A stretch of 64,000 nt of DNA from an uncultured Acidobacteriia bacterium (GCA_903892565.1 CAITIX010000353.1:19245-83244), one strand, 5' to 3'; numbered from the stretch's first letter, positions 6,730 to 49,210 are shown. Notes: generated by a model from the sequence alone, not told the origin. Made by a program: numbers and translations.

Positions 6730-7803
6730 ATGCTCACATCCGAACGCAACCGTCTGATTCTCCAGACGCTGCAACAGTTGGAGAAACAATTCGGCAAAGG
6801 AGCCATCGTCCAACTCGGCTCCAACACCGTCCTGCGCGTGGACGTGATCCCCACCGGCGCGATTTCGCTCGATGCCGCTCTTGGCGTGGGCGGATTGCCG
6901 CGAGGCCGCGTCATCGAAATCTTCGGGCCTGAATCGTCGGGCAAGACGACGCTCGCGCTGCACGCGATCGCTCAGGCGCAGGCCCTCGGCGGAACCGCCG
7001 CCTTCATCGACGCCGAGCACGCCCTCGACGCGCAATATGCCAAAGCGCTGGGCGTCGACACCGACAACCTCATCATTTCGCAACCGGATTCCGGAGAACA
7101 GGCGCTCGAAATCACAAACGCTCTGGTATCTTCGAACGTCGTCGACATCATCGTGGTTGACTCCGTCGCGGCCCTCGTACCCAAAGCCGAACTCGAAGGT
7201 GAGATGGGCGATAGCTTCATGGGCTTGCACGCGCGGCTCATGTCCCAGGCGCTGCGGAAGCTTACGGCTGCGCTCTCGCGGGCCAATGGCTGCCTTATCT
7301 TCATTAACCAGATCCGCGAAAAGATCGGCGTGATGTTCGGAAGTCCGGAAACCACCACGGGTGGCCGCGCTTTGAAGTTCTATTCTTCGATCCGCATCGA
7401 CGTTCGCCGGACGGGATCGATCAAAGACGGGGATCAGGCCGTGGGCAATCGTACGCGTATCAAGGTGGTGAAGAACAAAGTTGCCTCTCCCTTCCGCGAG
7501 GTGGAATTGGATATATTGTTCGGCCACGGCATCTCACGCGACGGCGACCTGATCGATTTCGGTGCCGCACAGGAAGTGCTCGAGAAAAGCGGCGCGTGGT
7601 ACAGCTTCGCGGGAGAGCGCATCGGCCAAGGTCGCGATAACGCAATTCGCTTTCTGAAAGAGAATCCTGAGATGCGCGAGCGCTTAGAAGCCGCGGTTCG
7701 GGCAAAAGTCGGCTTGCCCAAGCCACAACTCACACAGGGCAGGCCTCCCGAATCAAAACAGCCGGACGCGCAGGCCGCACGGGCGGGCTCGAAATCGGCG
7801 TAG
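6730..7803 (+). CDS. recA: recombinase RecA
   Basis: Walker [10 protein letters not shown] and highly conserved RecA core ([33 protein letters not shown]). ATG 6730 has GGGAGGA upstream. The track ORF starts at TTG 6721. Confidence 0.97.
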
Positions 7804-7855: not shown

Positions 7856-9079
7856 TCAATGCATGATCTCGTTCTTGGGAGCGAGCCCCACATTCAAGCC
7901 GAGCGCCAGGCAGGATCCGGCCGCGATCACCGCGACCATCGGGATAGACGTGCCGTTATCCAAACCGCTCACAAGCATGCCGCCTGCGCCACCAATCGCA
8001 AATTGCAGGCAGCCGAGCATGGCCGAAGCATTCCCGGCAATCTTGCCGTGGGGAGCCAACGCCAGCGCCGTCGCATTCGGCGATGCAAAGCCAAGACAGG
8101 CGATCGACACAAATAGCAACGCAAGCAAGCCTGCAAATCCGCCGAACTGCATCCACTGGCTCGCGAATAGCGCAAGCCCGGATGCTGCGGAAACAAAGAG
8201 GGTCGCGCGTAGGATCCGGGCGGGCTGCATGCGCCGCACCAGATAACCGTTCACCTGCGAAGCGCCGATCAATCCCGCGGCGATCATCCCGAAGAACAGG
8301 CCGAAGCGATCCGCGGAAATGTGATTGAGTTCGATAAACACTAACGGCGACCCCTCCAGATAGGCGAAGAGCCCCGCCATCACGAGGCTCCCGGAAAGCG
8401 CGTGCACCAGAAAGACCCGGTCGCCGAGCAAGGTGCCATACAACTGCAAGACGCTCGAAATGCGGACCGGCTTGCGCTGCTCGGGCGGCAAGGTTTCTTT
8501 GAGAAAGAGCGCGACGCTCACCAAGCACCCAATTCCCAGCGCGATCACGAACCAGAACGTCGCACGCCAGCTTGCGTGCACTACTAGATATCCACCGACA
8601 ATCGGCGCGACCACGGGCGAAACGCCGATCACCAGCATCAGAAACGAAAACATCCGCGCCGCTTCGCGCGGAGGGAAATAGTCGCGGACCACGGTACGGG
8701 AGATCAACGTTGCGGCGCATCCACCGACGGCTTGAAAAAAGCGCAGGACAGTCAGCATCACGATATTCGTCGAATAGGCGCAGCCGACGGCGCTTACGAT
8801 GAAAAGCACCAGTCCGAAGTACAGCGGAGGTTTCCGCCCGTAACTATCCGCGAACGGTCCGTAGAACAACTGCCCCAGCGATAGGCCGACGAAGTAGACG
8901 GCCAGCGTGGCTTCCACTTCGCCCACCGTTGTATGGAACGTTTCCGCAATCGCGGGAAACGCCGGCAGATATGTGTCGATGGAGAATGGCCCGAGCGCAG
9001 CGAGTGCCCCCAGCAGAAAAATTAGCCAGAACATCTTGCGTGGAGCTTGGGCGATTGTTTCTTCAGAAGCGCGTACCAT
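7856..9079 (-). CDS. MFS drug-resistance transporter, Bcr/CflA subfamily
   Basis: SIDTYLPAFPAIAETF and GPFADSYGRKPPL motifs, 12 TM helices. The start is uncertain (candidates at 9127, 9079 and 9034). Confidence 0.8.
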   Translation of the reverse strand: MVRASEETIAQAPRKMFWLIFLLGALAALGPFSIDTYLPAFPAIAETFHTTVGEVEATLAVYFVGLSLGQLFYGPFADSYGRKPPLYFGLVLFIVSAVGCAYSTNIVMLTVLRFFQAVGGCAATLISRTVVRDYFPPREAARMFSFLMLVIGVSPVVAPIVGGYLVVHASWRATFWFVIALGIGCLVSVALFLKETLPPEQRKPVRISSVLQLYGTLLGDRVFLVHALSGSLVMAGLFAYLEGSPLVFIELNHISADRFGLFFGMIAAGLIGASQVNGYLVRRMQPARILRATLFVSAASGLALFASQWMQFGGFAGLLALLFVSIACLGFASPNATALALAPHGKIAGNASAMLGCLQFAIGGAGGMLVSGLDNGTSIPMVAVIAAGSCLALGLNVGLAPKNEIMH

Positions 9080-9147: not shown

Positions 9148-10968
9148 CTAGTCGTCGTCGTCGTTGCTGCTGCCGGTTACTTTTAACACGGCAAGGAAGG
9201 CTTCTTGCGGGATCTCCACGCGTCCCACCCGTTTCATGCGCCGCTTGCCCTCTTTTTGCTTTTCGAGCAGTTTGCGCTTACGGCTGATATCGCCACCGTA
9301 GCACTTCGCGAGTACGTTCTTGCGGATCGCCGAGATTGTTTCGCGCGCCACGATCTTGTTGCCGATGGCCGCCTGCAGCGCCACTTCGAACATCTGGCGT
9401 GGGATCAGCTTGCGCAAGCGCGAGATCAGATCCTTGCCGCGATCATATGCGAATTCCGTATGCACGATCATCGAAAGCGCGTCCACCGGCTCGCCCGCCA
9501 CCAGCACGTCGAGCTTCACCATGGGCGACACGCGATGGCCCGCCAAATGATAATCGAGCGACGCGTAGCCGCGCGAGGCCGACTTCAAGCGATCGTAAAA
9601 ATCCAGCACGATTTCGTTCAGCGGCAATTCGTACACCAGCAGCACGCGGCCCGTGCCAATGTACTCGAACTTCTTCTGCACGCCGCGCTTTTCTTCCAGC
9701 AGCTTCAGGATCTCGCCAATAAAATCCTCGCGCGTGATGACCGTCGCATCGATGATTGGCTCTTGGATTTGCTTAATAAAAGAGGGGTCCGGGAAACGCT
9801 GCGGATTATTGACCTCGATCACTTCACCACCCGTCGTGGTGATGAGGTAGCGCACGCCCGGCGCCGTCGTGATCAGATCGATTTTAAATTCGCGCTCCAG
9901 TCGCTCCTGAATAATCTCCAAGTGGAGCAGGCCAAGGAAGCCGCAACGGAATCCGAAACCCAACGCAGCGGAATGCTCGGGCTCAAAGTTAAACGCGCTG
10001 TCATTGAGGCGGAGCTTTTCGAGTGCATCACGCAGCAGGCCGTGCTCATGCGATTCCACCGGATACAAACCGGCGAAGACCATCGCCTTGAGAGGCTCGA
10101 ATCCAGGCAGAGCCTCGGCCGGAGGATTCGCGTGTTCCACAATCGTGTCGCCGATCTGGGCATCGGATACCGTTTTGATATTGGCGAAGATGAAGCCCAC
10201 TTCGCCCGCCGCAAGTTCGTCGCAAGGAATCGGCTTGGGCGATTGGTACCCCACGCCTTCCACTTCATAGAAGCTGTTCGTCGCCCACAGGCGAATCTTC
10301 ATGCCTTTGCGAATGCGTCCGTCCACGACGCGCGCCAGGATGATCACGCCGCGGTACGAATCGAACCACGAATCGAAAATCAATGCGCGTAGAGGATCCG
10401 TCGGCAGCCCTTTGGGCGGCGGCACTTTCTGCACAATCGCTTCGAGGATCTCATCAATGCCGATGCCGTTCTTCGCGCTAGCAAGAACCGCTTCGCTGGC
10501 GTCGAGACCGATCACCGATTCGATCTGCTCCCGTACGCGTTCGGGCTCGGCCGACGGCAGATCGATCTTGTTGATCACGGGGATGATTTCCAGATTGTGG
10601 TGCAGCGCCAGGTACGTATTCGCCAGCGTCTGGGCCTCCACGCCTTGCGACGCGTCCACCACCAGCAATGCGCCTTCGCAAGCCTGTAAACTGCGGGACA
10701 CTTCATACGTGAAATCGACGTGGCCGGGCGTGTCGATCAAGTTCAGTTCATACCATTCGCCGTTTTTGGCTTTGTAATCCAAGCGCACGGCGTGGGCCTT
10801 AATGGTGATGCCGCGCTCGCGCTCCAGATCCATGGAGTCGAGCACCTGCGCCATCATTTCGCGCTGACTCAGCGCGCCGGTCGTCTCAAGCAATCGATCG
10901 GCAAGCGTAGATTTGCCGTGGTCGATATGCGCAATAATGCTGAAATTTCGAATGTGCGCGGGGTCCAT
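9148..10968 (-). CDS. lepA: elongation factor 4 (LepA)
   Basis: 606 aa. [34 protein letters not shown] GTPase motifs and the LepA-specific C-terminal domain. Confidence 0.97.
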
Positions 10969-11022
10969 TACGGTATGATGAAATTCGGAAGTCCGGCCGT
11001 CCGGAATTTCAATTATCCCACG

Positions 11023-11475
11023 ATGTCGTCCGATTCACTCAGCTGGCAAAATATAAACGCCCACGGACTTAAGTTCGCGATCGTTGTCGCGCGCTTCAAC
11101 AGCGCCATTACCGCGAAGCTTTTGGAGGGCGCGCAGGAAGCTTTGCAAAAAGCCGGCGCCTCTGGACACGAGGTTTTTCACGTGCCCGGAGCGTTTGAAC
11201 TGCCGCTGGCGGCCATGAAACTTGCGCGCCGCGGTGGATTCAATGGGATCGTCGCCCTAGGAGCCATTGTGCGCGGCGACACCCCTCACTTCGACTATGT
11301 CGCCGCGGAAACCTCTCGCGGCTTGATGCGCGTCTCGCTCGACACCGGCATCCCGGTGGCTTTCGGCGTCCTGACCACGGACACGATGGAACAGGCGGAA
11401 GCTCGCGCGGGCGGCTCCGCTGGCAATAAAGGCTTCGACGCCGCCATGACAGCCGTAGAAATGGCGCGATTTTGA
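11023..11475 (+). CDS. ribH: 6,7-dimethyl-8-ribityllumazine synthase
   Basis: Inside ORF 10720..11475. [13 protein letters not shown]...VPGAFELP...[14 protein letters not shown] is diagnostic. The upstream part of the ORF overlaps lepA antisense, so the ATG at 11023 was chosen. Confidence 0.92.
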
Positions 11476-11493
11476 TATGGTGATGTTTTAAAC

Positions 11494-11919
11494 ATGCCGG
11501 CACGCCACCGCTCTCGCCAACGCGCTTTGCAGGTTCTCTTTTCCTGGGATCAGGGAACGAAGAGCATTGAGGATTCCATCTCTGCGTTCTACGAAACGCT
11601 GGACTCCGAAGAAAGCGATCCGAAGCCGACGCCACCGGATCCTTTTATGGAAACGCTGGTGCGAGGCACGGCATCAAAGGCCAAGGACCTGGACCAAAAG
11701 ATCGAGGCGAAATCGAACAACTGGCGTCTGGAGCGCATGCCGAGCGTCGATCGCAACATCCTGCGCCTGGCCGTTTATGAAATGACACACACCGATTCGC
11801 CCGCGCCCATCGTCATTGATGAGGCATTGGAATTGGCGCGGCAATTTTCGACCGACGATTCCGCCTCCTTCGTCAACGGCATCCTCGACGCGATTCGTCG
11901 CGACCAAAACCCGACATAG
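11494..11919 (+). CDS. nusB: transcription antitermination factor NusB
   Basis: 141 aa directly downstream of ribH, the classic ribH-nusB pairing. RHRSRQRALQVLF...NILRLAVYEM...IDEALELAR. Confidence 0.93.
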   Translation: MPARHRSRQRALQVLFSWDQGTKSIEDSISAFYETLDSEESDPKPTPPDPFMETLVRGTASKAKDLDQKIEAKSNNWRLERMPSVDRNILRLAVYEMTHTDSPAPIVIDEALELARQFSTDDSASFVNGILDAIRRDQNPT

Positions 11920-37803: not shown

Positions 37804-37987
37804 AAATAGGATCCTTGACGTACAGGTCTGTCACGTGATTCTACGCGACCATCGAACGTACCGCAAGTAAAAAGCTCGAAGTCCATCCTGCCCGCGTATA
37901 CGCAGTGTATACTTTTCCTGTTGCCTATCGCGCGGAATACGCGCCGTGCGACCACAACAAATCGTGGAGCAACGAGGAGCCTATTTC

Positions 37988-39238
37988 ATGGAAATGAAGA
38001 CAATGTACCGATTGCGTGCGGCTTGGGCCGTGCCCATCGCGCTGTGTGCTTTGATGGGGACCACGGCACCGGCGGCGATGGCGCAGAAAGTGCCTGTATA
38101 TAAGGTGGATCCCTTCTGGCCGAAGATGCCGCTGAAGAATAAGTGGATCATCCAGGGCGTGCCCACCATGGTGACCGATAAGGATGATCACATCTGGGTG
38201 ATGAATCGTCCGCGCGATATTAATCCCGATGAGAGCGGAGCGGGGACGACGCCTCCGCGCACGGATTGCTGCATCGCTGCACCGGCCGTGTTGGAGTTCG
38301 ATACGGCGGGCAATTTACTGCAGGCCTGGGGCGGACCCGGCTATGTGGAAGGATGGCCGGCCAAGGACATTGCTCGTCCGGGTGCTGCAGCCGAACACAA
38401 CATCATGGTGGATCGCGAAGGCAACGTGTGGATCGGCGGCAATAGCCAGGGCGATAGCATTCAGAAGTTCACGTCCGACGGCAAACTGCTGTGGGATTTC
38501 GGACATCGTGCGCCGCGGCCTCCCGCTGCGCGCCTCCCGGAGAACAATCAGAACACCGATGTTTTCCCCGGCGGCATTTTCTTCTTCGACCTAGATGAAG
38601 ACGCGAAAGAAATTTACATCGTGGACGCCAAGCGGGTTCTGGTCTACGGCTACGACGGCAACTTCAAGCGCGGCTGGGGCGGACACGGGATCCCGCTCAG
38701 TGAAATCGACAACAACCCAACGCCTCCCTACGATACGTCCGGTCCGCCGCCCGATCAGCAGCAGTTCGCACCGGCGCTGCACTGCGTGCATTTTGCGGTC
38801 GATAAATTAGTCTATGTTTGCGAACGCGGCGCTGATCGCGTGCAGGTGTTCACGAAAGAAGGCAAGTTTGTTTCCAGCTTCTTCGTGCATCCTTCCACCA
38901 TCGCGCGCGGCAAGGAATGCGGCGGACCGGGAAGCCTGCTGTATGGCATGTGCGGGACGATCTATAACCTATCGTTTTCACACGACAAAGACGAGAACTT
39001 CGTATTCATCGCCGACGGCACGAATGACAAAGTGTGGATTCACGATCGAAAGACGGGCAAGGTTGTGGGCGAGATTGGCGACAACGGCCGCATGGCCGGC
39101 CAGTTCCACTGGATCGACGCCATTGCGATCGATTCCAAGGGCAACATGTATACGGGGGAAGTCGACAGCGGCAAGCGTGTGCAGAAGTTCATTCTGACGA
39201 ATGGCGACGGTGTATCAAGGCCGCGACCACACGAGTAG
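37988..39238 (+). CDS. secreted six-bladed beta-propeller (NHL/TolB-like) protein
   Basis: GAGGAG lies 8 nt before the ATG at 37988. Signal peptide ending in AMAQ. Repeated blade-like units (DREGNVWIGG, IYIVDAKRVLVY, VYVCERGADRVQVF, VFIADGTNDKVWIHD, DSKGNMYTGE). Confidence 0.7.
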   Translation: MEMKTMYRLRAAWAVPIALCALMGTTAPAAMAQKVPVYKVDPFWPKMPLKNKWIIQGVPTMVTDKDDHIWVMNRPRDINPDESGAGTTPPRTDCCIAAPAVLEFDTAGNLLQAWGGPGYVEGWPAKDIARPGAAAEHNIMVDREGNVWIGGNSQGDSIQKFTSDGKLLWDFGHRAPRPPAARLPENNQNTDVFPGGIFFFDLDEDAKEIYIVDAKRVLVYGYDGNFKRGWGGHGIPLSEIDNNPTPPYDTSGPPPDQQQFAPALHCVHFAVDKLVYVCERGADRVQVFTKEGKFVSSFFVHPSTIARGKECGGPGSLLYGMCGTIYNLSFSHDKDENFVFIADGTNDKVWIHDRKTGKVVGEIGDNGRMAGQFHWIDAIAIDSKGNMYTGEVDSGKRVQKFILTNGDGVSRPRPHE

Positions 39239-41439: not shown

Positions 41440-41664
41440 TTAGGAGAGGACTCTGACTTTGCCGGCCAACTCCGTGGCCTTGCCTTTATCCATCACGAGA
41501 CCGGCCCCGATCTCAATCCACATCGCGAGCGCTTCGAGATCCGAAGTCATGAGCTCATCCGGCTGTTTCTTGAGATGCGACTTACATTGCCGGCCGATAA
41601 ACGATTCGGCAGCAGGCCCCAGGTATTTTTTGCTCGTAGCGACAACTTTTTCGTAAACCGTCAC
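41440..41664 (-). CDS. hypothetical 74-aa protein, translationally coupled to the HAMP gene
   Basis: The ATG overlaps the stop of the upstream gene by 4 nt (ATGA). Helical, charged composition. No family recognised. Confidence 0.55.
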   Translation of the reverse strand: MTVYEKVVATSKKYLGPAAESFIGRQCKSHLKKQPDELMTSDLEALAMWIEIGAGLVMDKGKATELAGKVRVLS

Positions 41665-42506
41665 TGCGCGCCTCCCGGATTGGCGTGTTCGGCCTCAATG
41701 GCTTCAGCCTCAAGACGGAAGAACTTGACGGCCGTAACCATGCGCGAGAAGGAATCCGCCAGATCGCCAATCTCGTCTTCCGAGAAGCGGCGAACGGCCA
41801 TATCCAAGTTGCCAAGACTGACGTTTTCCGCAACCGATTTTAGATGCTCGACCGGAACGAGGATCGCTTTCGAAAGCTTGTAACTCATTGAAATCCCCAG
41901 CAGGATTGCGATCAGCGAAATGCTGATCGACAACTGAGTGGAGCGCCGGCTGACGCTGTCGATGTTTTCCTGCGAAACCTGACTGGCCTCGCGTCCGGCC
42001 ACTTCTCCGTCTTCGGCGTGATCGTGAAGCTGCTCGGCAGCCAGTTCGTAGGTCGCAGCCGCTGTTTTGGTCGCGTCGCTTGCAGGATCCTTTTCGGCAG
42101 CGGTGACCGTGGCTTCCAAAGCGTGTTTGTAGATCACCACGCCGTCGAGAATCTGTTGAAACTTTTCGCGACGCTCCGGCGTGGGCGCAATCGCGACGGC
42201 TTTCGTGGCCAGCGATTCAATCGCCTGGATTTCGAAATCTGCTTCGTCCAGATACATCTCGCGGGACTTCGCCGCCCCTAACGTCTTGACGCCGTCCAAG
42301 TAGCCGCGGATCCGGCGCTGGGCTTCCAGATTGTGGACTTGAATTTCCAGCCCCATCGCGTTGAGGCGGCCACCAACGCGGGTGGCATCCTGCGCGCTTT
42401 GGCGAAGGCTGGAGACGGCATACATTCCAATTCCGGCAACGCCCCCCAAAAGGAGGAGTACGCCGCAAAAGCCCCAAATCAATTTGTTGCGAATCGTGGG
42501 TTTCAT
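41661..42506 (-). CDS. membrane sensor module: four-helix-bundle (4HB_MCP-like) periplasmic domain, TM and HAMP, with no output domain
   Basis: Inside ORF 41661..42785, with the ATG at 42506. The N-terminal TM is LIWGFCGVLLLLGGVAGIGMYAV and the second TM is ISISLIAILLGISMSY. The HAMP pattern follows (ILVPVEHLKSVAENVSLGNLDMAV...EDEIGDLADSFSRMV). The protein ends about 30 aa after HAMP. Confidence 0.7.
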   Translation of the reverse strand: MKPTIRNKLIWGFCGVLLLLGGVAGIGMYAVSSLRQSAQDATRVGGRLNAMGLEIQVHNLEAQRRIRGYLDGVKTLGAAKSREMYLDEADFEIQAIESLATKAVAIAPTPERREKFQQILDGVVIYKHALEATVTAAEKDPASDATKTAAATYELAAEQLHDHAEDGEVAGREASQVSQENIDSVSRRSTQLSISISLIAILLGISMSYKLSKAILVPVEHLKSVAENVSLGNLDMAVRRFSEDEIGDLADSFSRMVTAVKFFRLEAEAIEAEHANPGGAQ

Positions 42507-42532
42507 AGTTGTAGTTTTCCTAGAGGTAAAGG

Positions 42533-43039
42533 TTAGAGAGGATAGCCCGCTTCTCCCGGTTGTTTTCCGTTGATGCGAATCACGCGAACATTCGGAGCGA
42601 TAGTCGGCAGCGAAGTAACATCGACAATGGCCAGCGCTCCGGATGTGCCAGTGACCATCTTGGCAGCGGCCGGGCCATTTCCAGCGACGTGAAGTTCCAC
42701 TGCTTCTTCCCCACGGAATTCCGCATTGGCGATGTAGCGGCGGTATTCGGCGTCGCTCATGCGGATAATGGCGGAAAGCACACACTTGAACGCCGCGCTT
42801 TGCCCATCGGGGACAACAATCGAGACTGGCTTCTTATCGGGCCAGGAGCGCAGGTCGCCCAGCAGCAGCCGGCGCAACTGCGCGGTGGACAGGGCCTCGG
42901 TTGAATTCGCCTTGTTGACCACAACCGCCAATCCGCCCGAAGCGCATTGTGCGTTAGCTGTGGCGCAGAGGGCAACGGCGAGAAGCGCGCCCTGCAGGCA
43001 CCGTAGCGCGATGCGGTTCTTGTTTTGTAATGTATTCAT
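42533..43039 (-). CDS. small periplasmic PstS/PBP_like_2-type binding-domain protein
   Basis: Signal peptide. VVVNKANSTEALSTAQLRRLLLGDLRSWPD...VSIVVPDGQSA resembles the PBP-like (phosphate-binding-protein family) domain, but the protein is only ~168 aa. Confidence 0.6.
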   Translation of the reverse strand: MNTLQNKNRIALRCLQGALLAVALCATANAQCASGGLAVVVNKANSTEALSTAQLRRLLLGDLRSWPDKKPVSIVVPDGQSAAFKCVLSAIIRMSDAEYRRYIANAEFRGEEAVELHVAGNGPAAAKMVTGTSGALAIVDVTSLPTIAPNVRVIRINGKQPGEAGYPL

Positions 43040-43069
43040 GCAATAGTTCTCCATGTCTGTGTCTCGCTT

Positions 43070-44461
43070 CTAGAACGCGAACGCCATCTGCGCCGTAAAG
43101 CCATTCTGGGCGGGAAGTGGTCCTCGATCGACTCGGTTGTACTGCAGTTTAAAGGCGGCGTACGCCGTGACATCCACTCGCAATCCAACCGACGGGCCTT
43201 GATAACGGCCGTTGAACACGTTGACCGTGTCCGCTAAAGGCGAGTTCACGAACTGATAGCGAAAGTAGGGGCGGTAGATGTGAAACTTGCGCGAGGCCTG
43301 CACATACCAGAGCGGCGTGTCGTAGGTCTTATTCCCATCGGCGGTCTTGCTGCCACCGGCTGCTTTGTTGGTGAGCAACACGCCTTCCGCCAGGAGTTCG
43401 TACGTGCCGTTGTTATAGACAGCATAGGCACTACTGACGCGCTGATCGACACGATACACCCCGGTAGCGGTCGGCGGGTACAGGCGATCGATGAAGTAAG
43501 AACCGCCCACTTGCAAACCCGGCGCCCACTGAGGCTTGATGTAGGCGGCAAAGTTCACGTCTTTGGCGTTGCGATCAGTGACGAAATTTTGTACTTGTGC
43601 GGCGCCTAAATCCGAGCCGCGTCCGTTGCCGATTTCGGCCACCCAATGCAGGTTGAGCGAACCACTGCCGGGCACCAGGCCCGTCGTGGTGATGCCAACC
43701 GAGTGCACCGGAAGAAGTCCGCCGGAGTCTTCGAAGAAGTACATGAACGGACGGCCCGCCGCCGTTTGGAACCACGTCCCATGATGAAACGCCGTGTTGT
43801 AGTAGCCAATCGCGGTGTGATAGCGGCCGCCGCTCGCTTCAAAATAAGGGTTGGCGCGGTATGTCAACTGGTAGCGCTCCATGTCGAGGCCCCATTCGTT
43901 GGTCTGGTCTGTTCCGACGACCAGTTCGGCAACGAAGCTCCATTTTTCAGACAGCTTGGAGCTCATGAAAAGATCGAACTCGCCGGCGCGAAAAACGCTA
44001 TTGTTTACCGGCAAGGGATAGATGAGCGTATTGGACGCAGCGCCCGATCCGAAATCGATATCAAAGAAGCCACGGATTTTTAGGGCCGGTCCACCACCCG
44101 GCAGCTGCACCATATGATCGTGGCCACCCGAATCCATGCTGCCGGAATCCATGCTGCCGGAATCCATGCTGGAGGATTCCGCGGGAGCCGGGGTCTGCGC
44201 GGCCGCTGCTGCTTCGGGCTTGGCCGCGTCGGACGCATCCTTTGCGGCCGGCTCCGCCGCAGCCCGCAGTACTGGGGGTGCGGTCTGCTGCGCGTTGACG
44301 AAGGGCTCGGCCACGCAAAAGACCAGTGCGGCGGTCGCGAACGTCATCGCGGATTTCAACATCGCGGATTTCAATACTGTGGATTTCAACTTCGGCAAAG
44401 CGAACCTCGTGGATTGTGAATTCGTTGGCTTCATCTTGATTTGATTTTTGTGCGGCACCAT
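43070..44461 (-). CDS. outer-membrane beta-barrel porin (phosphate-selective-porin-like)
   Basis: C-terminal ...QMAFAF ending in Phe, alternating beta-strand pattern, and a signal sequence. The start is uncertain (44506, 44461 or 44434). Contains two in-frame 15-nt tandem repeats. Confidence 0.7.
   Translation of the reverse strand: MVPHKNQIKMKPTNSQSTRFALPKLKSTVLKSAMLKSAMTFATAALVFCVAEPFVNAQQTAPPVLRAAAEPAAKDASDAAKPEAAAAAQTPAPAESSSMDSGSMDSGSMDSGGHDHMVQLPGGGPALKIRGFFDIDFGSGAASNTLIYPLPVNNSVFRAGEFDLFMSSKLSEKWSFVAELVVGTDQTNEWGLDMERYQLTYRANPYFEASGGRYHTAIGYYNTAFHHGTWFQTAAGRPFMYFFEDSGGLLPVHSVGITTTGLVPGSGSLNLHWVAEIGNGRGSDLGAAQVQNFVTDRNAKDVNFAAYIKPQWAPGLQVGGSYFIDRLYPPTATGVYRVDQRVSSAYAVYNNGTYELLAEGVLLTNKAAGGSKTADGNKTYDTPLWYVQASRKFHIYRPYFRYQFVNSPLADTVNVFNGRYQGPSVGLRVDVTAYAAFKLQYNRVDRGPLPAQNGFTAQMAFAF
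44130..44174. repeat. 15-nt tandem repeat x3 inside the porin gene (encodes SMDSG x3)
   Basis: GAATCCATGCTGCCG occurs twice exactly. A third copy diverges in its last 3 nt. Confidence 0.9.
44346..44390. repeat. 15-nt tandem repeat x3 inside the porin 5' end (encodes LKSxx x3)
   Basis: ATCGCGGATTTCAAC / ATCGCGGATTTCAAT / ACTGTGGATTTCAAC. Confidence 0.9.
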
Positions 44462-44574
44462 AGCGCTCCTACTAGAGAAGTGCGATGGCGGCGATTCTCT
44501 CTTCAACCAAATGCGAGAGGATTTTACCGATTTCTCAAAACCGGGGCGTGGACGGACGTTTCATTTCGGGATTC

Positions 44575-46473
44575 TTAGAAGAGTTCGACGTTATCACCCA
44601 GATCCGATGAACCGGCCGCGACCAAAACGGCGTCGGCGGAGGATTCCGCGCGCTCGGCTTCGCCCAGGCAGCCGTCGTGCACCATGCGTTCGGCGTGCAT
44701 GGTGTATTGGCCCTTGAGAGCGCGAAGATCGTCGGAATGCAACTCATGAGCGTCGAGTGTTTCACAAAGTTCTTGGGCCAGGGCCGCCACCTGAGCGGCG
44801 GAAACCTCGATCTCGGGCAAAACCTCATCGCACATGCGCTGGAAGTTGACCGTCTGCATCTGCGCCGCGGTTTGGCGCGCGTTGTCGACGAATTCGCCGA
44901 CCTTTTGAAACGCGTTCAGCGTGGCATCGCGGAAATTGTGGAGCCCCTGACTTTCGTCGCCTCCGAACAGCGCGGCCATGCGGAAGCTTTCGCCGACGAT
45001 GTTCCCAAATCCGTCGAGGGTCTCCCGGACGTCGCCTGCCAGCGTACGAACCTCTTGATCGGCGCCGGCACAGATGCGCGAAACATCCTGCGAGGTCTCC
45101 GCCATGCGTTCGGCCAGCACTTCGAGTCCGGTGCCCGCGCCGTAGCGTGCGGCGGCCAACTGAAAGTTCAACGCGAGCCGGTGCATCTGTTCACTGGTGG
45201 CGGCGATATCCTGACTGAGGCTCGAGACAACGGCCTTGAGCGGCTGCAGCGGCTCCGAGCAGGCACGCGCCGCATCGGCGGCCTCGTTCACCAACTGGCA
45301 GGTTTCTTCAATGCTATCGAGCAGAATTTGAACCGTGCCATGGACGCTTGCGCTGGCCTGGCCATACTCCCGCATCATGATGCAGTCTTCATCGAAGCGA
45401 CGGACTCCGTTGACCACTCCATCGACGTTGGCAAGCAAGGCCAGCGATGCCATTCTCAACTGTTCGCGAGCGGATTGAATCTGCGCGGTTTCCAGAGAGG
45501 CGATCGCAGCGATATTCGCCAAGCCCTGCCGGCTGTCCGCTACCGTGCCTTCTTCGAGCTGAGCAAACTTTTGGCTGAGTACTTCGAGGCCTTTGTTGGC
45601 GTGCGCCAAGCGTTGCACCACGGTGTCGTGTGTTTGCATGGAAACGACCATGGTTCCCACTTCCTGACTCAACCCGCCGGTGGCATCGAGCAAACCCGTT
45701 TGCAGGCGGCAACTCTGGGCTACATTCGCGTCCATTTGGTTGAACGAAGCGGCAAGAGCGGCACGTTTTCTTTCGACGCGATCGGCCAGCGCGTTGCCGC
45801 GGCGAGCATATTCATCCGCGAAGCCGGCGAGCGCTTTGCGAAGCTTACGCAGCTCCGCAAACTTCTCGCTGAACTGCGTCTGCAACGCATTTTGCAGAGC
45901 TTCGATCTCTTCATCCATCGAGCCGAAGATCTCGTTCGTCAGGCGTGCGGATTCGACGTGAAACGACGCTCTCAAGTGCACCAGCGGTTTGAGCGCGGCG
46001 AACAGTTCTTCCTCCGCCCGAAGAATGCGCGCGATCGTTGCCTGAATGCGCTCCGCGTTGTTGCGAAGTCCGGCGGCGTCAAACGCGAAATCCGAAACAA
46101 ACGCCAACGGGCGATCGAGTAATTCACGGACCGCTTGAATGGCGCTGTTCCCTTCGTCACCGGCCGCGACGGACAACAGACTTTGCCCATGGTGAACCAC
46201 ATGATCACAGTTGGCCGCCAGGCGTTGCAACCCTTCTCCAAACTTGAGAAACTCCTTTTCCGCACGCGATGTTTCTGGCCCCAAGCGCTTGCGAGCCCGC
46301 CGCAGGCGAGCCAGCGCCTTTGCGCATAAAGCACGCAGATAGAAACCCGCGGGAAGACGTTCGACGATCCGCACGTGTCGGGAGGCACGTCCGACAAGCC
46401 GCATGCCTCGCCTGAGGATGCGGAGCCCGATGGGTGGCGTTAGCTCAGGCACAGACGACTTCGGCATGTTCAT
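44575..46473 (-). CDS. soluble long coiled-coil protein with a degenerate MCP-signalling-domain-like hairpin tip
   Basis: 632 aa, no TM, helical heptad-like composition. IAATSEQMHRLALNFQLAAARYGAGTGLEVLAERMAETSQDV aligns by eye to the MCP tip consensus [40 protein letters not shown]. The longer antisense-free frame supports the minus strand. Confidence 0.65.
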   Translation of the reverse strand: MNMPKSSVPELTPPIGLRILRRGMRLVGRASRHVRIVERLPAGFYLRALCAKALARLRRARKRLGPETSRAEKEFLKFGEGLQRLAANCDHVVHHGQSLLSVAAGDEGNSAIQAVRELLDRPLAFVSDFAFDAAGLRNNAERIQATIARILRAEEELFAALKPLVHLRASFHVESARLTNEIFGSMDEEIEALQNALQTQFSEKFAELRKLRKALAGFADEYARRGNALADRVERKRAALAASFNQMDANVAQSCRLQTGLLDATGGLSQEVGTMVVSMQTHDTVVQRLAHANKGLEVLSQKFAQLEEGTVADSRQGLANIAAIASLETAQIQSAREQLRMASLALLANVDGVVNGVRRFDEDCIMMREYGQASASVHGTVQILLDSIEETCQLVNEAADAARACSEPLQPLKAVVSSLSQDIAATSEQMHRLALNFQLAAARYGAGTGLEVLAERMAETSQDVSRICAGADQEVRTLAGDVRETLDGFGNIVGESFRMAALFGGDESQGLHNFRDATLNAFQKVGEFVDNARQTAAQMQTVNFQRMCDEVLPEIEVSAAQVAALAQELCETLDAHELHSDDLRALKGQYTMHAERMVHDGCLGEAERAESSADAVLVAAGSSDLGDNVELF

Positions 46474-46765
46474 TCATCCGCGTGAATCGCAGCAGGCGAT
46501 CCAAATTCTTGTCCTGAATCAGAATCTTGGCTTTTGCGTCTCTCTCCTTCGCCAACTTGAGAATCTGCACGATAAAATTCAGGCCCATGGCGTCGATCAT
46601 TTTGGTACCTGTCAAGTCGAGTTCCAGTGTGCGCCAGGAAGACTGCTGGACTTGGGGATCCTTCTGAAGGGCATGCAGTTTGTCAAACAAATCGCGGACG
46701 CCAGTGCTGAGGACGTCTTGCCGAATGGCGACGTAAAGAACGTCGTGCTGGATTCTATGTTCCAT
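46445..46765 (-). CDS. STAS-domain protein (anti-sigma-factor-antagonist fold)
   Basis: The ATG at 46765 lies 2 nt after the stop of the upstream REC-PP2C-kinase gene. LELDLTGTKMIDAMGLNFIVQIL matches the STAS core, but Ala replaces the phosphorylatable Ser. Confidence 0.7.
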   Translation of the reverse strand: MEHRIQHDVLYVAIRQDVLSTGVRDLFDKLHALQKDPQVQQSSWRTLELDLTGTKMIDAMGLNFIVQILKLAKERDAKAKILIQDKNLDRLLRFTRMNEHAEVVCA

Positions 46766-46767
46766 CG

Positions 46768-48240
46768 CTAACGGGAACTCCCTTCTGGATTCGTATCGGC
46801 CAAGTTCACGTCGAAATCGATCCACATTTCCGCGCCATGGCGTATTATTTGAACTTGCCGTGCAAGTGCATCAATCAACTGGAGTCCGCGATGGACGGTC
46901 CCGAGGTTCTCAGCGGGCCTGGCTACGTAGAGCGGCTTTTCGTAACCGGAGCCCGGATCGTTCACGATCAGCCGCAGGCTGCGCGCGTCCGGATCATACG
47001 CGGCTTGAAGATGGGCGGATTGTTCCGCCTTGCAGCCGCGCTCCAGTGCATTGAGTATGGCCTCGCGAGCGACCAGGAGAATATCGAACAAGCCCTCATC
47101 GGAAATATCGGGGATGGCGAGCTTGAGACTGCGCCGCCATAATTCCTGCCAGGTGTCGATATCCTGCTGTTCTTCCTTCGCAAATTTTGCAAGGAGCAGC
47201 GGCCTCAGACCGACCAGTGGCTCCATTGGATTGACCAGGTTGATGGCGACGGCCATGATATCGTCGTTGGCAGATTCGGCCCATGCGGGGCGCGGCTTCC
47301 CGTTGGCGAGAGCGGATTGAAGCACAAAGCAAATCGAGAGCGGATCTACACCGAGCCGCTTGGCGAGATCATCTAATCCATCCGTCCATAGACGAATCGA
47401 GCTGCCGGGTTGCCAGCGATAGGATGCACGCCGGGTTGCCGGTCCCGGGAACCACCCTAGCGGACAAGAAGGACTGCTGAGGCCAATCGAAAATCCGTCG
47501 GCGTTGGTCAGAATGGGCAGGGGATTCCCATTCACGGCGACAATCAAGTTCCGCAGGCGGCTGTCAATCCACAACGCCGTGACCGCAATCGAAGCCGGAA
47601 CGGTATGGGTCTTTTCGTTTTGCCCGTTCCATTCTTCAAGCAGCACGTGGTTGAAGAACTCCAGAATTTCTTCGAGCTTCGCGCCGCGACGCAACATGCC
47701 ACGGATGAGCCCCTGGAAATACGCCGATAAAAAGGCCGCGTTCAGATCGTGGCCGGAGACATCGGCAGCCAACAACAGCATTTCCGTCTCCGATGCGGGA
47801 CACATGACCAGAAAATCCCCGCCGGCCTGATGGAGCGGATAGTGGACGATGCGCACGCCTTCTTTTTCGCGCCCGCGGCTGCTTTGCAGCATCGTTTGAT
47901 GCGAACTGGCGATGGCACGAACGTCGCCTTCCAAGCGAGCCTGATTCCGAATTCTCCTGCAGCGCTTGACGGCATGTTCCACGACACGAACAAGATCGGC
48001 GGCTGTGGTTGGTTTATCGAGAAAGCGGCATGCGCCCGCGGACCAGGCCTGCTCGACAACCTTCTTATCCCCACGGGCCGTGACGAGCACGGTGCTTGCG
48101 GCGGCATTGCAATTGGTGATCCAGCGGATGAGTTCAATCCCATCCAGGTCGGGCATAAGGTAATCGACGGTGACACAGTCGAAGGGGCCTTGCGTTGTGA
48201 AGACAAGTTGGGCCGATGTGCCGTTGCTCGCCGTTGTCAC
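46768..48240 (-). CDS. REC - PP2C phosphatase - RsbW/SpoIIAB-like kinase (HATPase_c) fusion, HsbR-like; the true start is upstream of 48240
   Basis: Receiver motif DCVTVDYLMPDLDG...VLVTA...DKP. PP2C motifs GGDFLV, ADVSGHD, WTDGL, NDDIM. Kinase N-box REAILNALERG, G1 NDPGSGY, G2 HRGLQLI. The minimal ORF starts at GTG 48240, but receiver strand beta-1 is encoded in frame further upstream (see findings). Confidence 0.8.
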   Translation of the reverse strand: MTTASNGTSAQLVFTTQGPFDCVTVDYLMPDLDGIELIRWITNCNAAASTVLVTARGDKKVVEQAWSAGACRFLDKPTTAADLVRVVEHAVKRCRRIRNQARLEGDVRAIASSHQTMLQSSRGREKEGVRIVHYPLHQAGGDFLVMCPASETEMLLLAADVSGHDLNAAFLSAYFQGLIRGMLRRGAKLEEILEFFNHVLLEEWNGQNEKTHTVPASIAVTALWIDSRLRNLIVAVNGNPLPILTNADGFSIGLSSPSCPLGWFPGPATRRASYRWQPGSSIRLWTDGLDDLAKRLGVDPLSICFVLQSALANGKPRPAWAESANDDIMAVAINLVNPMEPLVGLRPLLLAKFAKEEQQDIDTWQELWRRSLKLAIPDISDEGLFDILLVAREAILNALERGCKAEQSAHLQAAYDPDARSLRLIVNDPGSGYEKPLYVARPAENLGTVHRGLQLIDALARQVQIIRHGAEMWIDFDVNLADTNPEGSSR

Positions 48241-48481
48241 GTAGCATCCGTATTTTTCCAGAACGGCTTGAAAGAGCTTGCGAAAGACTGGATCGTCGTC
48301 GACGACCAGAACGCGCGGCGGTTCGCCCCAATCCGGTACAGAAGCCGCGGCAGGAATCTTCGAAATGGCTTCTGCGATAAGAATAAGTGCAAGCCTCCAT
48401 TCCCTTCTCGGTTTCGCACGCTCTTTCTTTTAATCTTTGGAGGCTGGTCGCCCGATAAGGGCACCAGGGAGGAAAACGTTT

Positions 48482-48817
48482 GTGGTCACAGCGCTTCCAG
48501 CCGTGGAAATCGTTTCGGGCGAGCAACACAAAGTACTGCATTTAAGAGGACCGTTGGGATTGGCGAATGGACGCGGGCTGCGTGACGCCGCGCTGAAGAT
48601 GGCCGTAAGCCCAACCGGGGCTGATGCCACGGGACGAATTCATATAAATGCGAGTGAGCTCGAAACGACGGACGTAGCCATTGTCCAGGTTCTGGCGGCG
48701 ATGCACGCAGAGTCCACGCGGCGGGGCCGGACCATGGAAGTCACGGGCTTACGCGACGCGGTGCAAAAGGAGTGGCTGGCGGCGGGATGGGAAAGTTTTC
48801 CGATCGGCGCGAATTAA
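48482..48817 (+). CDS. STAS-domain protein (MlaB-like, che-cluster-type STAS)
   Basis: GGGAGGA lies 8 nt before GTG 48482 (the track ORF starts at TTG 48437). INASELETTDVAIVQVLAAM...GRTMEVTGLRDAV fits the STAS fold. Divergent from the HsbR-like gene. Confidence 0.6.
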   Translation: MVTALPAVEIVSGEQHKVLHLRGPLGLANGRGLRDAALKMAVSPTGADATGRIHINASELETTDVAIVQVLAAMHAESTRRGRTMEVTGLRDAVQKEWLAAGWESFPIGAN

Positions 48818-48844
48818 CCGGCGCAAACGGCGTTTGAGGGAATT

Positions 48845-49210
48845 ATGGCCAAAAAAGTATTAGTCGTCGATGATTCGGCATCCATGCGGCAGATGATTGC
48901 CTTCACTTTGACCCGGGCCGGTTACGATGTGGCCCAGGGAATCAACGGGAAGGACGGATTGGTGCAACTAGCCAAACATCGGCCGCAGTTGATCATCAGC
49001 GATTTGAACATGCCGGAGATGGACGGCCTGGAATTTATCCGGCAATTGCGTAAACTGCCGGATTCGCGCCTCACGCCGGTCCTCATGCTCACCACCGAGA
49101 GCGATGCAACGAAGAAACAGGAAGGCAAAAGTGCGGGGGCCACGGGTTGGCTGGTAAAACCATTTCAGCCAGACCAACTATTGCAAGTAATCGCACGAGT
49201 GCTACCCTAG
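48845..49210 (+). CDS. single-domain CheY-like response regulator
   Basis: KKVLVVDDSASMR, ISDLNMPEMDG, PVLMLTTE and GWLVKPF are the canonical receiver residues. Confidence 0.92.
   Translation: MAKKVLVVDDSASMRQMIAFTLTRAGYDVAQGINGKDGLVQLAKHRPQLIISDLNMPEMDGLEFIRQLRKLPDSRLTPVLMLTTESDATKKQEGKSAGATGWLVKPFQPDQLLQVIARVLP

Follow-up and report, generated by a model that had tools for sequence, protein, structure and literature searches.

A chemotaxis-type partner-switch module and a HAMP receptor cassette with a STAC-like protein, probably independent in signalling, lie side by side in an acidobacterial genome

Among described systems, the closest relatives of the genes considered here are found in Che (chemotaxis) clusters of the F7 class. 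At stages 1 and 2, F7 clusters contain cheA, cheW, cheR, cheB and cheY, a soluble PAS receptor resembling Aer2, and a STAS gene next to cheY; to these they add a trio of genes for an extra receptor, a STAS protein, and a "serine phosphatase" in which REC, PP2C and kinase domains are joined (PMC7184735, PMC9855816). CrsR and CrsA, together with the extra receptor McpA, belong to the che1 locus of Shewanella oneidensis (PMC9855816). The nine genes analysed here come from an uncultured Acidobacteriia bacterium and lie at positions 41,440 to 49,210 of a stretch of 64,000 nucleotides (CAITIX010000353.1:19245-83244 of assembly GCA_903892565.1), the whole of which is called the window below. A sequence-only reading of this window knew of no described system with such a composition; however, Che clusters with a STAS gene, a serine phosphatase and an extra receptor had been described (PMC7184735, PMC9855816).

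Two further systems provide points of reference. In Pseudomonas aeruginosa, the REC domain of HsbR is the target of HptB; unphosphorylated HsbR phosphorylates the STAS protein HsbA, phosphorylated HsbR dephosphorylates it, and CrsR and CrsA work likewise on RpoS (PMC6482189). The second system is the Af1503/Af1502 type, in which a receptor is followed by a translationally coupled partner. These partners are four-helix proteins made of two hairpins and a nine-residue linker, with the motif LGPx(x)A between helices 1 and 2; their gene neighbourhoods are enriched in transport genes, and the domain has been named STAC (PMC4834066). According to the same authors, Af1502 is undetectable by sequence even against its own family (PMC4834066). 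The STAC domain of CbrA sits docked beneath the transporter core and has been proposed to pass on the motions of that core (PMC13022988).

The nine genes of the window probably represent two separate conserved modules that are placed side by side and are independent in signalling. Module B holds the genes of a partner switch, a CheY, and a protein related to methyl-accepting chemotaxis proteins (MCPs); Module C is a four-gene cassette that runs from a putative outer-membrane protein to a HAMP receptor and a protein of 74 residues (Table 1). This division is drawn from gene content, domain homologies, family sizes and neighbourhood statistics. A check of open reading frames (ORFs) and a Pfam search confirmed the nine genes, their spacing and most of the domain calls. 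Seven genes occupy the minus strand (41440-48426), spaced in order by 2 nucleotides, an overlap, 113, 30 and 26 nucleotides, and a 4-nucleotide GTGA overlap, and two divergent genes occupy the plus strand (48437-49210). In the public annotation of a 99.98%-identical scaffold, the predicted proteins are the same, with 106, 630, 463/442, 168, 281 and 74 residues. The layout proposed by the sequence-only reading, with a second STAS gene and a CheY-like regulator divergent from the other seven, was therefore correct, and its statement that CheA, CheW and Hpt are missing also holds: tblastn with the Che proteins of a relative found no homologue of CheA, CheW, MCP, CheR or CheB in the 64-kb window, nor does the window encode HptB or a CheA P1/Hpt domain that could serve as phosphodonor to REC. 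Nothing near the genes was recognised as a sigma factor, an anti-sigma factor or another target of STAS; such a target may lie elsewhere in the genome.

Gene neighbourhoods provide the principal evidence for Module B. In the relative L001 (52% identical), the arrangement of the window, with STAS_2 and CheY divergent from the genes for the RsbU-like fusion, STAS, MCP-like, barrel, binding-protein-like, HAMP and 74-residue proteins, is accompanied by CheW, PAS-MCP and CheA on one side, followed by CheY, CheB and CheR. The locus L007 (37%) has a Che core like that of L001 and the partner-switch trio, without the barrel, binding-protein-like and HAMP genes. L003 (78%) resembles the window and has NadA and MoaA where L001 has the Che genes. 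A CheA gene with an Hpt domain is adjacent in both L001 and L007. Co-occurrence was counted over non-redundant MCP-like loci with enough flanking sequence, so that the denominators differ by gene. The RsbU-like and STAS genes are each present in 15 of 20 loci, CheA and CheW each in 15 of 19, and an orthologue of the window's CheY in 24 of 27. A scan of metagenome contigs yielded 36 loci of a more distant subgroup (22-27% identical to the MCP-like protein of the window), many of which are collinear in the order RsbU-like, STAS, MCP-like, CheY, CheA, CheW, PAS-MCP, CheY, CheB and CheR; an example of this ten-gene cluster is L031 (7867-19599).

On this neighbourhood evidence, the MCP-like protein regularly belongs to a Che cluster that includes a partner-switch arm. 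Because the same trio clusters with CheA and CheW in the relatives, CheA belongs to the system, and the lineage of the window has only lost the Che core from its neighbourhood. The suggestion that STAS partner switching replaces CheA as the output thus finds no support in the cluster to which the trio belongs. A different arrangement is seen in L004, where a gene of 568 codons (10001-11707) joins, in one reading frame, the N-terminal PAS part of PAS-MCP and the MCP-like protein, the latter beginning at about residue 195, and the CheA, CheY, STAS_2, fusion and STAS genes that intervene in L001 are missing, through either a deletion or an assembly chimera.

Module C has a different distribution. 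Any of the barrel, binding-protein-like, HAMP and 74-residue genes occur in 3 of 18 MCP-like loci (L001, L003 and L004), all of which belong to the clade of the window, and none occurs in any of the 36 metagenome loci. In four loci from outside this clade, L012 (on a contig of 8.65 Mb), L013, L015 and L016, the cassette is surrounded by unrelated genes, and for 8-10 kb around it there is no MCP-like, STAS, PP2C or Che gene. The stand-alone cassettes retain a barrel protein that is 50-54% identical to that of the window, a binding-protein-like protein that is 57-65% identical, a HAMP receptor that is 62-74% identical, and a protein of 73-74 residues. The cassette and the MCP-like genes are therefore conserved together only in the clade of the window. 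The fixed barrel, binding-protein-like, HAMP and STAC cassette is itself new. In L013 and L016, a transporter gene of the DASS/CitMHS type directly precedes the cassette, and in L013 (5182-11048), L015 (4020-8735) and L016 (910-6797) the cassette adjoins a divergent gene for a GAF-sigma54 activator. These pairings may hint at the regulator and the target of the cassette; a search for a sigma-54 promoter motif ahead of the window's cassette found none.

Table 1. Positions of the two modules, their genes and the main segments of the MCP-like protein in the window
Feature	Position	Strand	Basis or composition
Module B	44575-49210		STAS_2 and CheY divergent from REC-PP2C-HATPase_c_2, then STAS, then MCP-like protein
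Module C	41440-44461	-	Outer-membrane protein, half-size PBP-like (periplasmic binding protein-like) protein, 4HB-TM-HAMP receptor, 74-residue protein
CheY-type single-domain response regulator, 121 residues	48845..49210	+	Pfam Response_reg 3e-29
STAS_2 protein, 126 residues	48437..48817	+	Pfam STAS_2 4.8e-11; start codon uncertain
REC-PP2C(SpoIIE)-HATPase_c_2 fusion, HsbR/CrsR-like	46768..48426	-	Pfam, NCBIfam, frame reading
STAS protein, 106 residues, HsbA/CrsA-like	46445..46765	-	Pfam STAS 4e-5; alignment with RsbV, SpoIIAA
Soluble all-helical MCP-like protein, 630 residues from Met3 (632-residue ORF)	44575..46473	-
Hairpin tip 1, residues 171-195, FHVESARLTNEIFGSMDEEIEAL, degenerate	45889..45963	-	AlphaFold2 loop 176-180
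Motif V276..Q280..D283..Q287..H291 (consensus LQFQDIxxQKLxHV)	45601..45648	-	Invariant family columns
Hairpin tip 2, residues 432-458, RLALNFQLAAARYGAGTGLEVLAERMA	45100..45180	-	Hidden Markov model alignments to 2ch7/3ja6; AlphaFold2 loop 445-449
Conserved C-terminal peptide LGDNVELF	44578..44601	-	Behind variable low-confidence linker
Putative outer-membrane beta-barrel protein, 463 residues, first cassette gene	43070..44461	-
Exported 168-residue protein like one PstS-type lobe	42533..43039	-	PBP_like_2, PstS
Af1503-like HAMP receptor, 281 residues	41661..42506	-	Pfam HAMP 1.7e-7; hydropathy
74-residue stand-alone STAC-like (Af1502-like) protein	41440..41664	-	AlphaFold2, Foldseek, YLGPA motif

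The first protein of the cassette had been called a porin. Its termini fit an outer-membrane barrel, with an N-terminus like a signal peptide and a C-terminus that ends in AQMAFAF, the terminal residue being Phe, and these are the only support for a barrel; the protein has no sequence match in Pfam, NCBIfam or the PDB, Porin_O_P included, and the assignment to a porin family did not stand. Its orthologues, 50-74% identical, are found at the head of every cassette. In the window, the Ala/Pro-rich region after its signal peptide contains three tandem SMDSG repeats followed by GHDH (44126-44170, minus strand). The corresponding gene of L003 (12011-13309) is interrupted by internal stops or frameshifts and is called as two genes; the interruptions are either sequencing errors or marks of real pseudogenes.

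The second protein was read as a half-size PstS-like binding protein, and the likeness to PstS is reproducible. PBP_like_2 matches three orthologues at about 1e-4, over profile positions of roughly 88-188 of 267, which corresponds to one lobe, and PstS (4exl) is matched in the PDB at 3e-4. However, in the window's protein the PBP_like_2 match scores 23.8 bits, below the Pfam gathering cut-off of 27, and its length is 168 residues as against about 270. An analogy with YfiBNR was considered for the cassette, given an NCBIfam match to HK_near_YfiR_like over the second transmembrane segment (TM2) and HAMP domain of the receptor, and was rejected: the small periplasmic protein matches PBP_like_2, not a YfiR family.

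The third protein is a receptor that ends shortly after its HAMP domain, as had been predicted. A first transmembrane segment (residues ~9-32) is followed by a periplasmic helical domain of about 155 residues, TM2 (~189-208), HAMP (211-259) and a tail of 22 residues. There is no output domain. The 4HB_MCP family matches at E=0.035 and is precomputed in many orthologues. The receptor has 392 homologues; among those listed as full-length, the size is 263-301 residues and the only domains are HAMP with or without 4HB_MCP_1. Searches of the PDB returned only weak matches to the HAMP domains of HtrII and Af1503, which do not discriminate.

The gene that follows the receptor, an arrangement kept in all 8 of 8 cassettes, is coupled to it by the GTGA start/stop overlap, with GGGAGG 7 nucleotides upstream. 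A single-sequence AlphaFold2 model of the 74-residue product (mean confidence, pLDDT, of 76) consists of helices 3-15, 17-30, 40-57 and 60-71 with a central linker of 9 residues, and the invariant residues Y14-L15-G16-P17-A18 lie between helices 1 and 2. In a Foldseek search of 350,542 PDB chains, the best match was Af1502 of Archaeoglobus fulgidus (5a1q), with a TM-score of 0.61-0.65 and a probability of 0.89; the root-mean-square deviation is 3.1 Å over 70 columns, and E=0.72. A profile of six sequences found neither Af1502 nor CbrA in the PDB, and Pfam gave no match. Together, the model, the motif and the gene order indicate that the 74-residue protein looks like a stand-alone STAC and that its pairing with the HAMP receptor is of the Af1503/Af1502 type.

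Several points weigh against two independent modules. Module B and the cassette are adjacent in four loci although their outer flanks differ, with MoaA/NadA and CytoC_RC in the window and L003 and the Che core and PMT/DnaE in L001 and L004. The gap of 113 nucleotides between the modules contains no evident terminator or promoter; the sigma-70 and terminator scans, like the sigma-54 search, gave nothing above chance level. The STAC assignment comes from a single-sequence model and a Foldseek match of low significance, with no sequence-profile match beside them. Finally, the pathway proposed for Module B assumes a CheA encoded elsewhere in the genome. Because the adjacency persists across differing flanks, a functional link specific to this clade is possible. 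In such a case, the HAMP-STAC cassette would have been taken up as an additional source of periplasmic signals for the Che/partner-switch pathway, not as one half of a receptor, and the STAC protein or the HAMP tail could, for example, act on the MCP-like protein or on the fusion protein. The retention of the cassette beside the MCP-like gene in L004, where the partner switch is missing, and the failure to find a terminator in the gap would agree with this. On the other hand, the four loci are fairly close (52-78% identity), so that the adjacency may simply be inherited synteny, and a terminator scan that does no better than chance says little about the gap. We regard such a coupling as rather unlikely and retain two independent modules as the probable reading.

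The MCP-like protein of Module B belongs to a family that domain libraries miss. As a single sequence it matches no Pfam or NCBIfam family and gives no MCPsignal match, only coiled-coil noise, and weak MCPsignal matches appear in only 5 of 66 family members. Family profiles, however, do reach the chemoreceptors: a profile of 11 sequences matches the cytoplasmic domain of the Thermotoga maritima receptor TM1143 at E=1e-4, and one of 66 sequences matches it at E=2.4e-10, spanning the hairpin tip and the whole C-terminal arm, with chemoreceptors making up all six of the best PDB matches. The protein is thus a remote relative of the MCP signalling hairpin that lies outside the PF00015 model, and its earlier description as a soluble protein like an MCP tip holds through the family profiles, not through the single sequence. 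A word-indexed search found only 11 relatives, and a profile search of GTDB genomes returned only two loci. With an exhaustive profile search the number rose to 3258 representatives at E≤1e-3; at E≤1e-30 it was at least 318 (clusters at 50% identity). Almost all of these proteins are full-length, with about 600-700 residues. This MCP-derived family, which has no Pfam or NCBIfam model, is itself new.

The AlphaFold2 model made from an alignment of 83 sequences (pLDDT 89; predicted TM-score 0.69) is all-helical, with four helical stretches of about 125-134 residues that are joined by tight turns at 176-180, 308-310 and 445-449, so that the chain forms two tandem helical hairpins of about 260 residues each. 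Hairpin tip 2 (RLALNFQLAAARYGAGTGLEVLAERMA) aligns with the MCP tip of TM1143. When the N-terminal half was compared with the C-terminal half by hhalign, only one alignment resulted, and it places the tips in register (P=0.0019); this suggests that the protein arose by internal duplication. Because the length of the middle turn differs between family members, some of which have Pro or Gly there, the hairpins most likely pack side by side through a U-turn, giving a single-chain four-helix bundle and not a rod like that of DosM. Foldseek found no PDB match to the model at E≤0.001; MCPs appeared among SMC proteins and pore-forming toxins, which is not decisive.

Several features of chemoreceptors are missing from this protein. 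It has no transmembrane segment; the methylation consensus [ASTG][ASTG]xx[EQ][EQ]xx[ASTG][ASTG] is absent from the window's protein and from 70 of the 83 members, and no EE or QE pair is conserved in the family. The C-terminal xWxxF tether is not present either: NVELF shares N, E and F with NWETF, but its position 2 is Val and not aromatic. Near-invariant polar clusters, L-H512-x-x-R515-D516 and Y590-T-M-x-S-E595-R-x-V-H599 (window ~44677-44940), have no known counterpart in chemoreceptors. Combined with Q280, D283, Q287 and H291, they could make up a site for a ligand or a metal at the end of the bundle away from the tips.

Q280, D283 and Q287 do not vary across the 83 members, whose mean identity is about 25%, and the conservation of H291 is 98%. 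The family consensus at this point, FQDIxxQ, corresponds to the FQDLTGQ stretch of CheZ (F141-Q-D143-L-T-G-Q147). CheZ proteins carry a conserved C-terminal peptide that docks CheY and lies behind a flexible linker. The MCP-like protein likewise ends in a conserved peptide behind a disordered linker (residues 614-632 have a pLDDT below 50), and its tightest gene linkage is to CheY. These features raise the possibility of a CheZ-type phosphatase built on an MCP-like bundle, in which D283 and Q287 would remove the phosphate from CheY~P or from REC, with LGDNVELF serving to dock the regulator. The sole hhalign match to Escherichia coli CheZ sets D283/Q287 on D143/Q147 (P=0.038), and Pfam CheZ is the top match for one of ten motif fragments (E=0.0066, below cut-off). 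The homologues sought by tblastn included no CheZ, CheC or CheX, none was seen in the Pfam-annotated clusters of L001 and L007, and to our knowledge no CheZ is known in the phylum Acidobacteriota.

Against this, the hhalign probability is 1.4%, nine of the ten fragments have no CheZ match, and neither family profile finds CheZ in the PDB. NVELF is equally like the NWETF tether of CheR and CheB, and the polar motif may instead be the ligand or metal site mentioned above. The comparison was made with a single E. coli CheZ sequence (which matched 1KMI chain Z over residues 1-214 at E=9.5e-135), since the homologues found were all at least 71% identical. The likeness of the motif to CheZ is suggestive and not significant, and a CheZ-type role is doubtful. 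It concerns only what the 630-residue protein does and is compatible with two independent modules. Equally tentative is the broader proposal that the protein represents a widespread, unrecognised class, with tandem hairpins, FQDxxxQ and a docking peptide, that acts at the array as phosphatase or regulator of CheY and REC, to which the clade of the window might add Af1503/STAC input.

The sequence-only reading had instead joined the two modules, taking the 281-residue HAMP protein and the 630-residue protein as the halves of one split chemoreceptor with STAS output instead of CheA. The genes are indeed adjacent on the same strand, and this is kept in the window, L003, L001 and L004; the HAMP protein stops where an MCP would go on, and the 630-residue protein is derived from MCPs. 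However, the two families mostly occur apart, with the cassette alone in four of four loci outside the clade and found at 3 of 18 MCP-like loci. The HAMP protein already has a dedicated STAC protein, to which it is translationally coupled; the 630-residue protein lacks a family-conserved N-terminus that would continue a HAMP domain, and CheA and CheW are integral to the cluster in the relatives. The neighbourhood data thus appear largely to refute the split receptor, which we consider very unlikely.

The remaining genes of Module B are those of the partner switch and the CheY. The fusion protein matches SpoIIE (5e-18), Response_reg (1e-13) and HATPase_c_2 (1.5e-10) in Pfam, and its translation contains the REC residues DD/D/T/K, the PP2C motifs GGDF/DVSGH/TDG/DD, and the N-box and DPGSG of the kinase. 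With the STAS protein encoded next to it, it has the architecture of HsbR/HsbA (CrsR/CrsA) that had been recognised from the sequence. The first canonical start codon of the fusion gene is a GTG at 48240, yet the first strand of REC and its DDD pocket (VLVVDDD) lie in frame upstream, and NCBIfam matches to REC begin at residue 38 of the extended frame. Reading this frame back to the stop at 48429-48427, no ATG, GTG or TTG precedes the first REC strand; the candidate start is an ATT at about 48384, 9 nucleotides after GGAGG. The stretch encoding the REC N-terminus (48240-48429) is kept relative to L003, with differences mostly at third positions. These observations suggest that the gene uses a non-canonical start. 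Gene callers shorten the protein, to 490 residues in the window and 506 in L003.

The phospho-acceptor codon of the STAS gene (46589-46591), which aligns with S56 of RsbV and S58 of SpoIIAA, encodes Ala (GCC) in the window, whereas all six orthologues have Ser in the motif D-S-x-G (D-S-x-G-L). The ENA scaffold L014 agrees with the window at 8607 of 8609 bases and has Ser (TCC) at this site, owing to a single-nucleotide polymorphism at 46591. One of only two differences between these sequences thus falls on the residue that makes the STAS protein phosphorylatable, and the Ala form may be a selected variant locked in one state. The other difference, at 38969, lies outside the modules, in the ORF region 37946-39238. 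STAS_2 has orthologues in L001, L003 and L007. In distant relatives, the gene that comes directly after the MCP-like gene encodes the orthologue of the window's CheY, and the orthologues that adjoin the MCP-like gene in 24 of 27 loci are 47-94% identical. In L003, the CheY gene (7236-7601) is likewise called as two pieces because of internal stops or frameshifts, again either sequencing errors or real pseudogenes.

Between the window and L003, two genomes without the Che core, the ratio of nonsynonymous to synonymous substitutions (dN/dS) is 0.016-0.12 across the genes of Module B, with 0.016 for CheY and 0.12 for the fusion gene, at a dS near saturation. Because of these ratios, Module B is best regarded, from codon comparison, as under purifying selection and not as a decaying relic. 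That it is nonetheless the remnant of a Che cluster, having lost its Che core (absent from both the window and L003), the start codon before REC and the phospho-serine of STAS, is hardly credible, given these ratios in all its genes, the kept REC N-terminus with its mostly third-position changes, the intact catalytic motifs, and a Ser-to-Ala change that is a single strain-level polymorphism, Ser being kept in a scaffold 99.98% identical to the window.

The phosphotransfer and binding steps that we infer for the two modules are as follows. Module B would be the accessory or output arm of a Che-type (chemotaxis-like) pathway. The CheA assumed above would phosphorylate both the REC domain of the fusion and the small CheY, and by analogy with HsbR and CrsR, phosphorylation of REC would switch the fusion between Ser-kinase and PP2C-phosphatase action on STAS. 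The STAS protein would then swap binding partners, its target probably being encoded outside the window. The MCP-like protein, apparently a soluble and tandem-duplicated derivative of a chemoreceptor hairpin, probably has the role of a scaffold, receptor or phosphatase, exerted either at the array or on CheY. In Module C, a ligand would enter through the outer-membrane protein, be presented by the half-size binding protein, and be sensed by the receptor that ends in HAMP, through its periplasmic helical domain. HAMP would signal to the co-translated STAC protein, which, by analogy with the STAC domain of CbrA, may dock on a membrane transporter or a signalling partner.

Read in this way, what looked like a seven-gene system is a juxtaposition of known kinds of module, and a false annotation as a "CheA-independent split chemoreceptor" is averted. 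The cassette, publicly annotated as a "methyl-accepting chemotaxis protein," gains a name as an Af1503-like HAMP receptor with STAC. A pairing described from archaea would thereby be extended to hundreds of bacterial loci with fixed outer-membrane and binding-protein partners, and the bacterial cassettes offer a genetically tractable route to the roles of stand-alone STAC proteins and of HAMP receptors that lack an output. For Module B, Che clusters whose output is a partner switch appear to include, as a constant component, a large MCP-derived family that domain libraries have missed. That Che1-type systems drive switches of the CrsR/HsbR type, still a question in Shewanella and Vibrio, would gain independent comparative support from the tight ten-gene acidobacterial operons, which also supply a candidate for the missing phosphatase.

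Compared with the ancestral F7 clusters (cluster III of Vibrio cholerae and che1 of S. oneidensis), the window holds counterparts of exactly the accessory genes. Its relatives add the Che core, whereas in the window this core is not adjacent. The phylum differs, the window belonging to the Acidobacteriota, and so does the gene order, which is phosphatase-STAS-receptor in the window and receptor-STAS-phosphatase in ancestral F7. No CheD was detected. The extra receptor of F7 is the transmembrane protein McpA, whereas that of the window is soluble, consists of tandem hairpins, escapes recognition by Pfam and has no methylation consensus. HsbR/HsbA of P. aeruginosa shows the same fusion of REC, PP2C and a kinase/anti-sigma domain with an adjacent STAS gene, and D-S-x-G is found in the orthologues of the window's STAS protein; the Ala of the window is the natural equivalent of the laboratory mutant HsbA S56A. 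The input to HsbR/HsbA is the separate protein HptB, whereas in the relatives of the window it would be the CheA of the same cluster, and no FlgM, HsbD or sigma factor lies near the window's genes.

The 630-residue protein bears comparison with two others. Like DosM of the V. cholerae F9 arrays, it is a soluble protein of the chemoreceptor type with two signalling hairpins per chain; however, DosM is an extended rod with a tip at each end and is a Pfam-recognised MCP (PMC7534058), whereas here the hairpins are joined by the short variable loop at 308-310 and tip 1 is degenerate. Like CheZ (PF04344; 1KMI), it is a long helical hairpin bundle with FQD[LI]xxQ, a Phe-ending peptide behind a linker, and a gene next to cheY, but it is three times longer, has MCP-like tips, and shows no significant profile similarity to CheZ.

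The cassette, in turn, agrees with Af1503/Af1502 in that HAMP is the only cytosolic part of the receptor, and in that the next gene is coupled and encodes a four-helix protein of about 70 residues with LGPx(x)A and a 9-residue linker, with transport-related genes nearby. Between Af1502 and the 74-residue protein there is no detectable sequence similarity. The Af1503/Af1502 family has been described as archaeal, whereas the pair in the window is bacterial and belongs to a fixed set of four genes, the other two of which encode an outer-membrane protein and a half-size PBP-like protein. Taken together, these comparisons make it likely that the region joins an acidobacterial variant of the gamma-proteobacterial clusters that combine Che genes with a partner switch to a bacterial cassette of the Af1503/STAC type.

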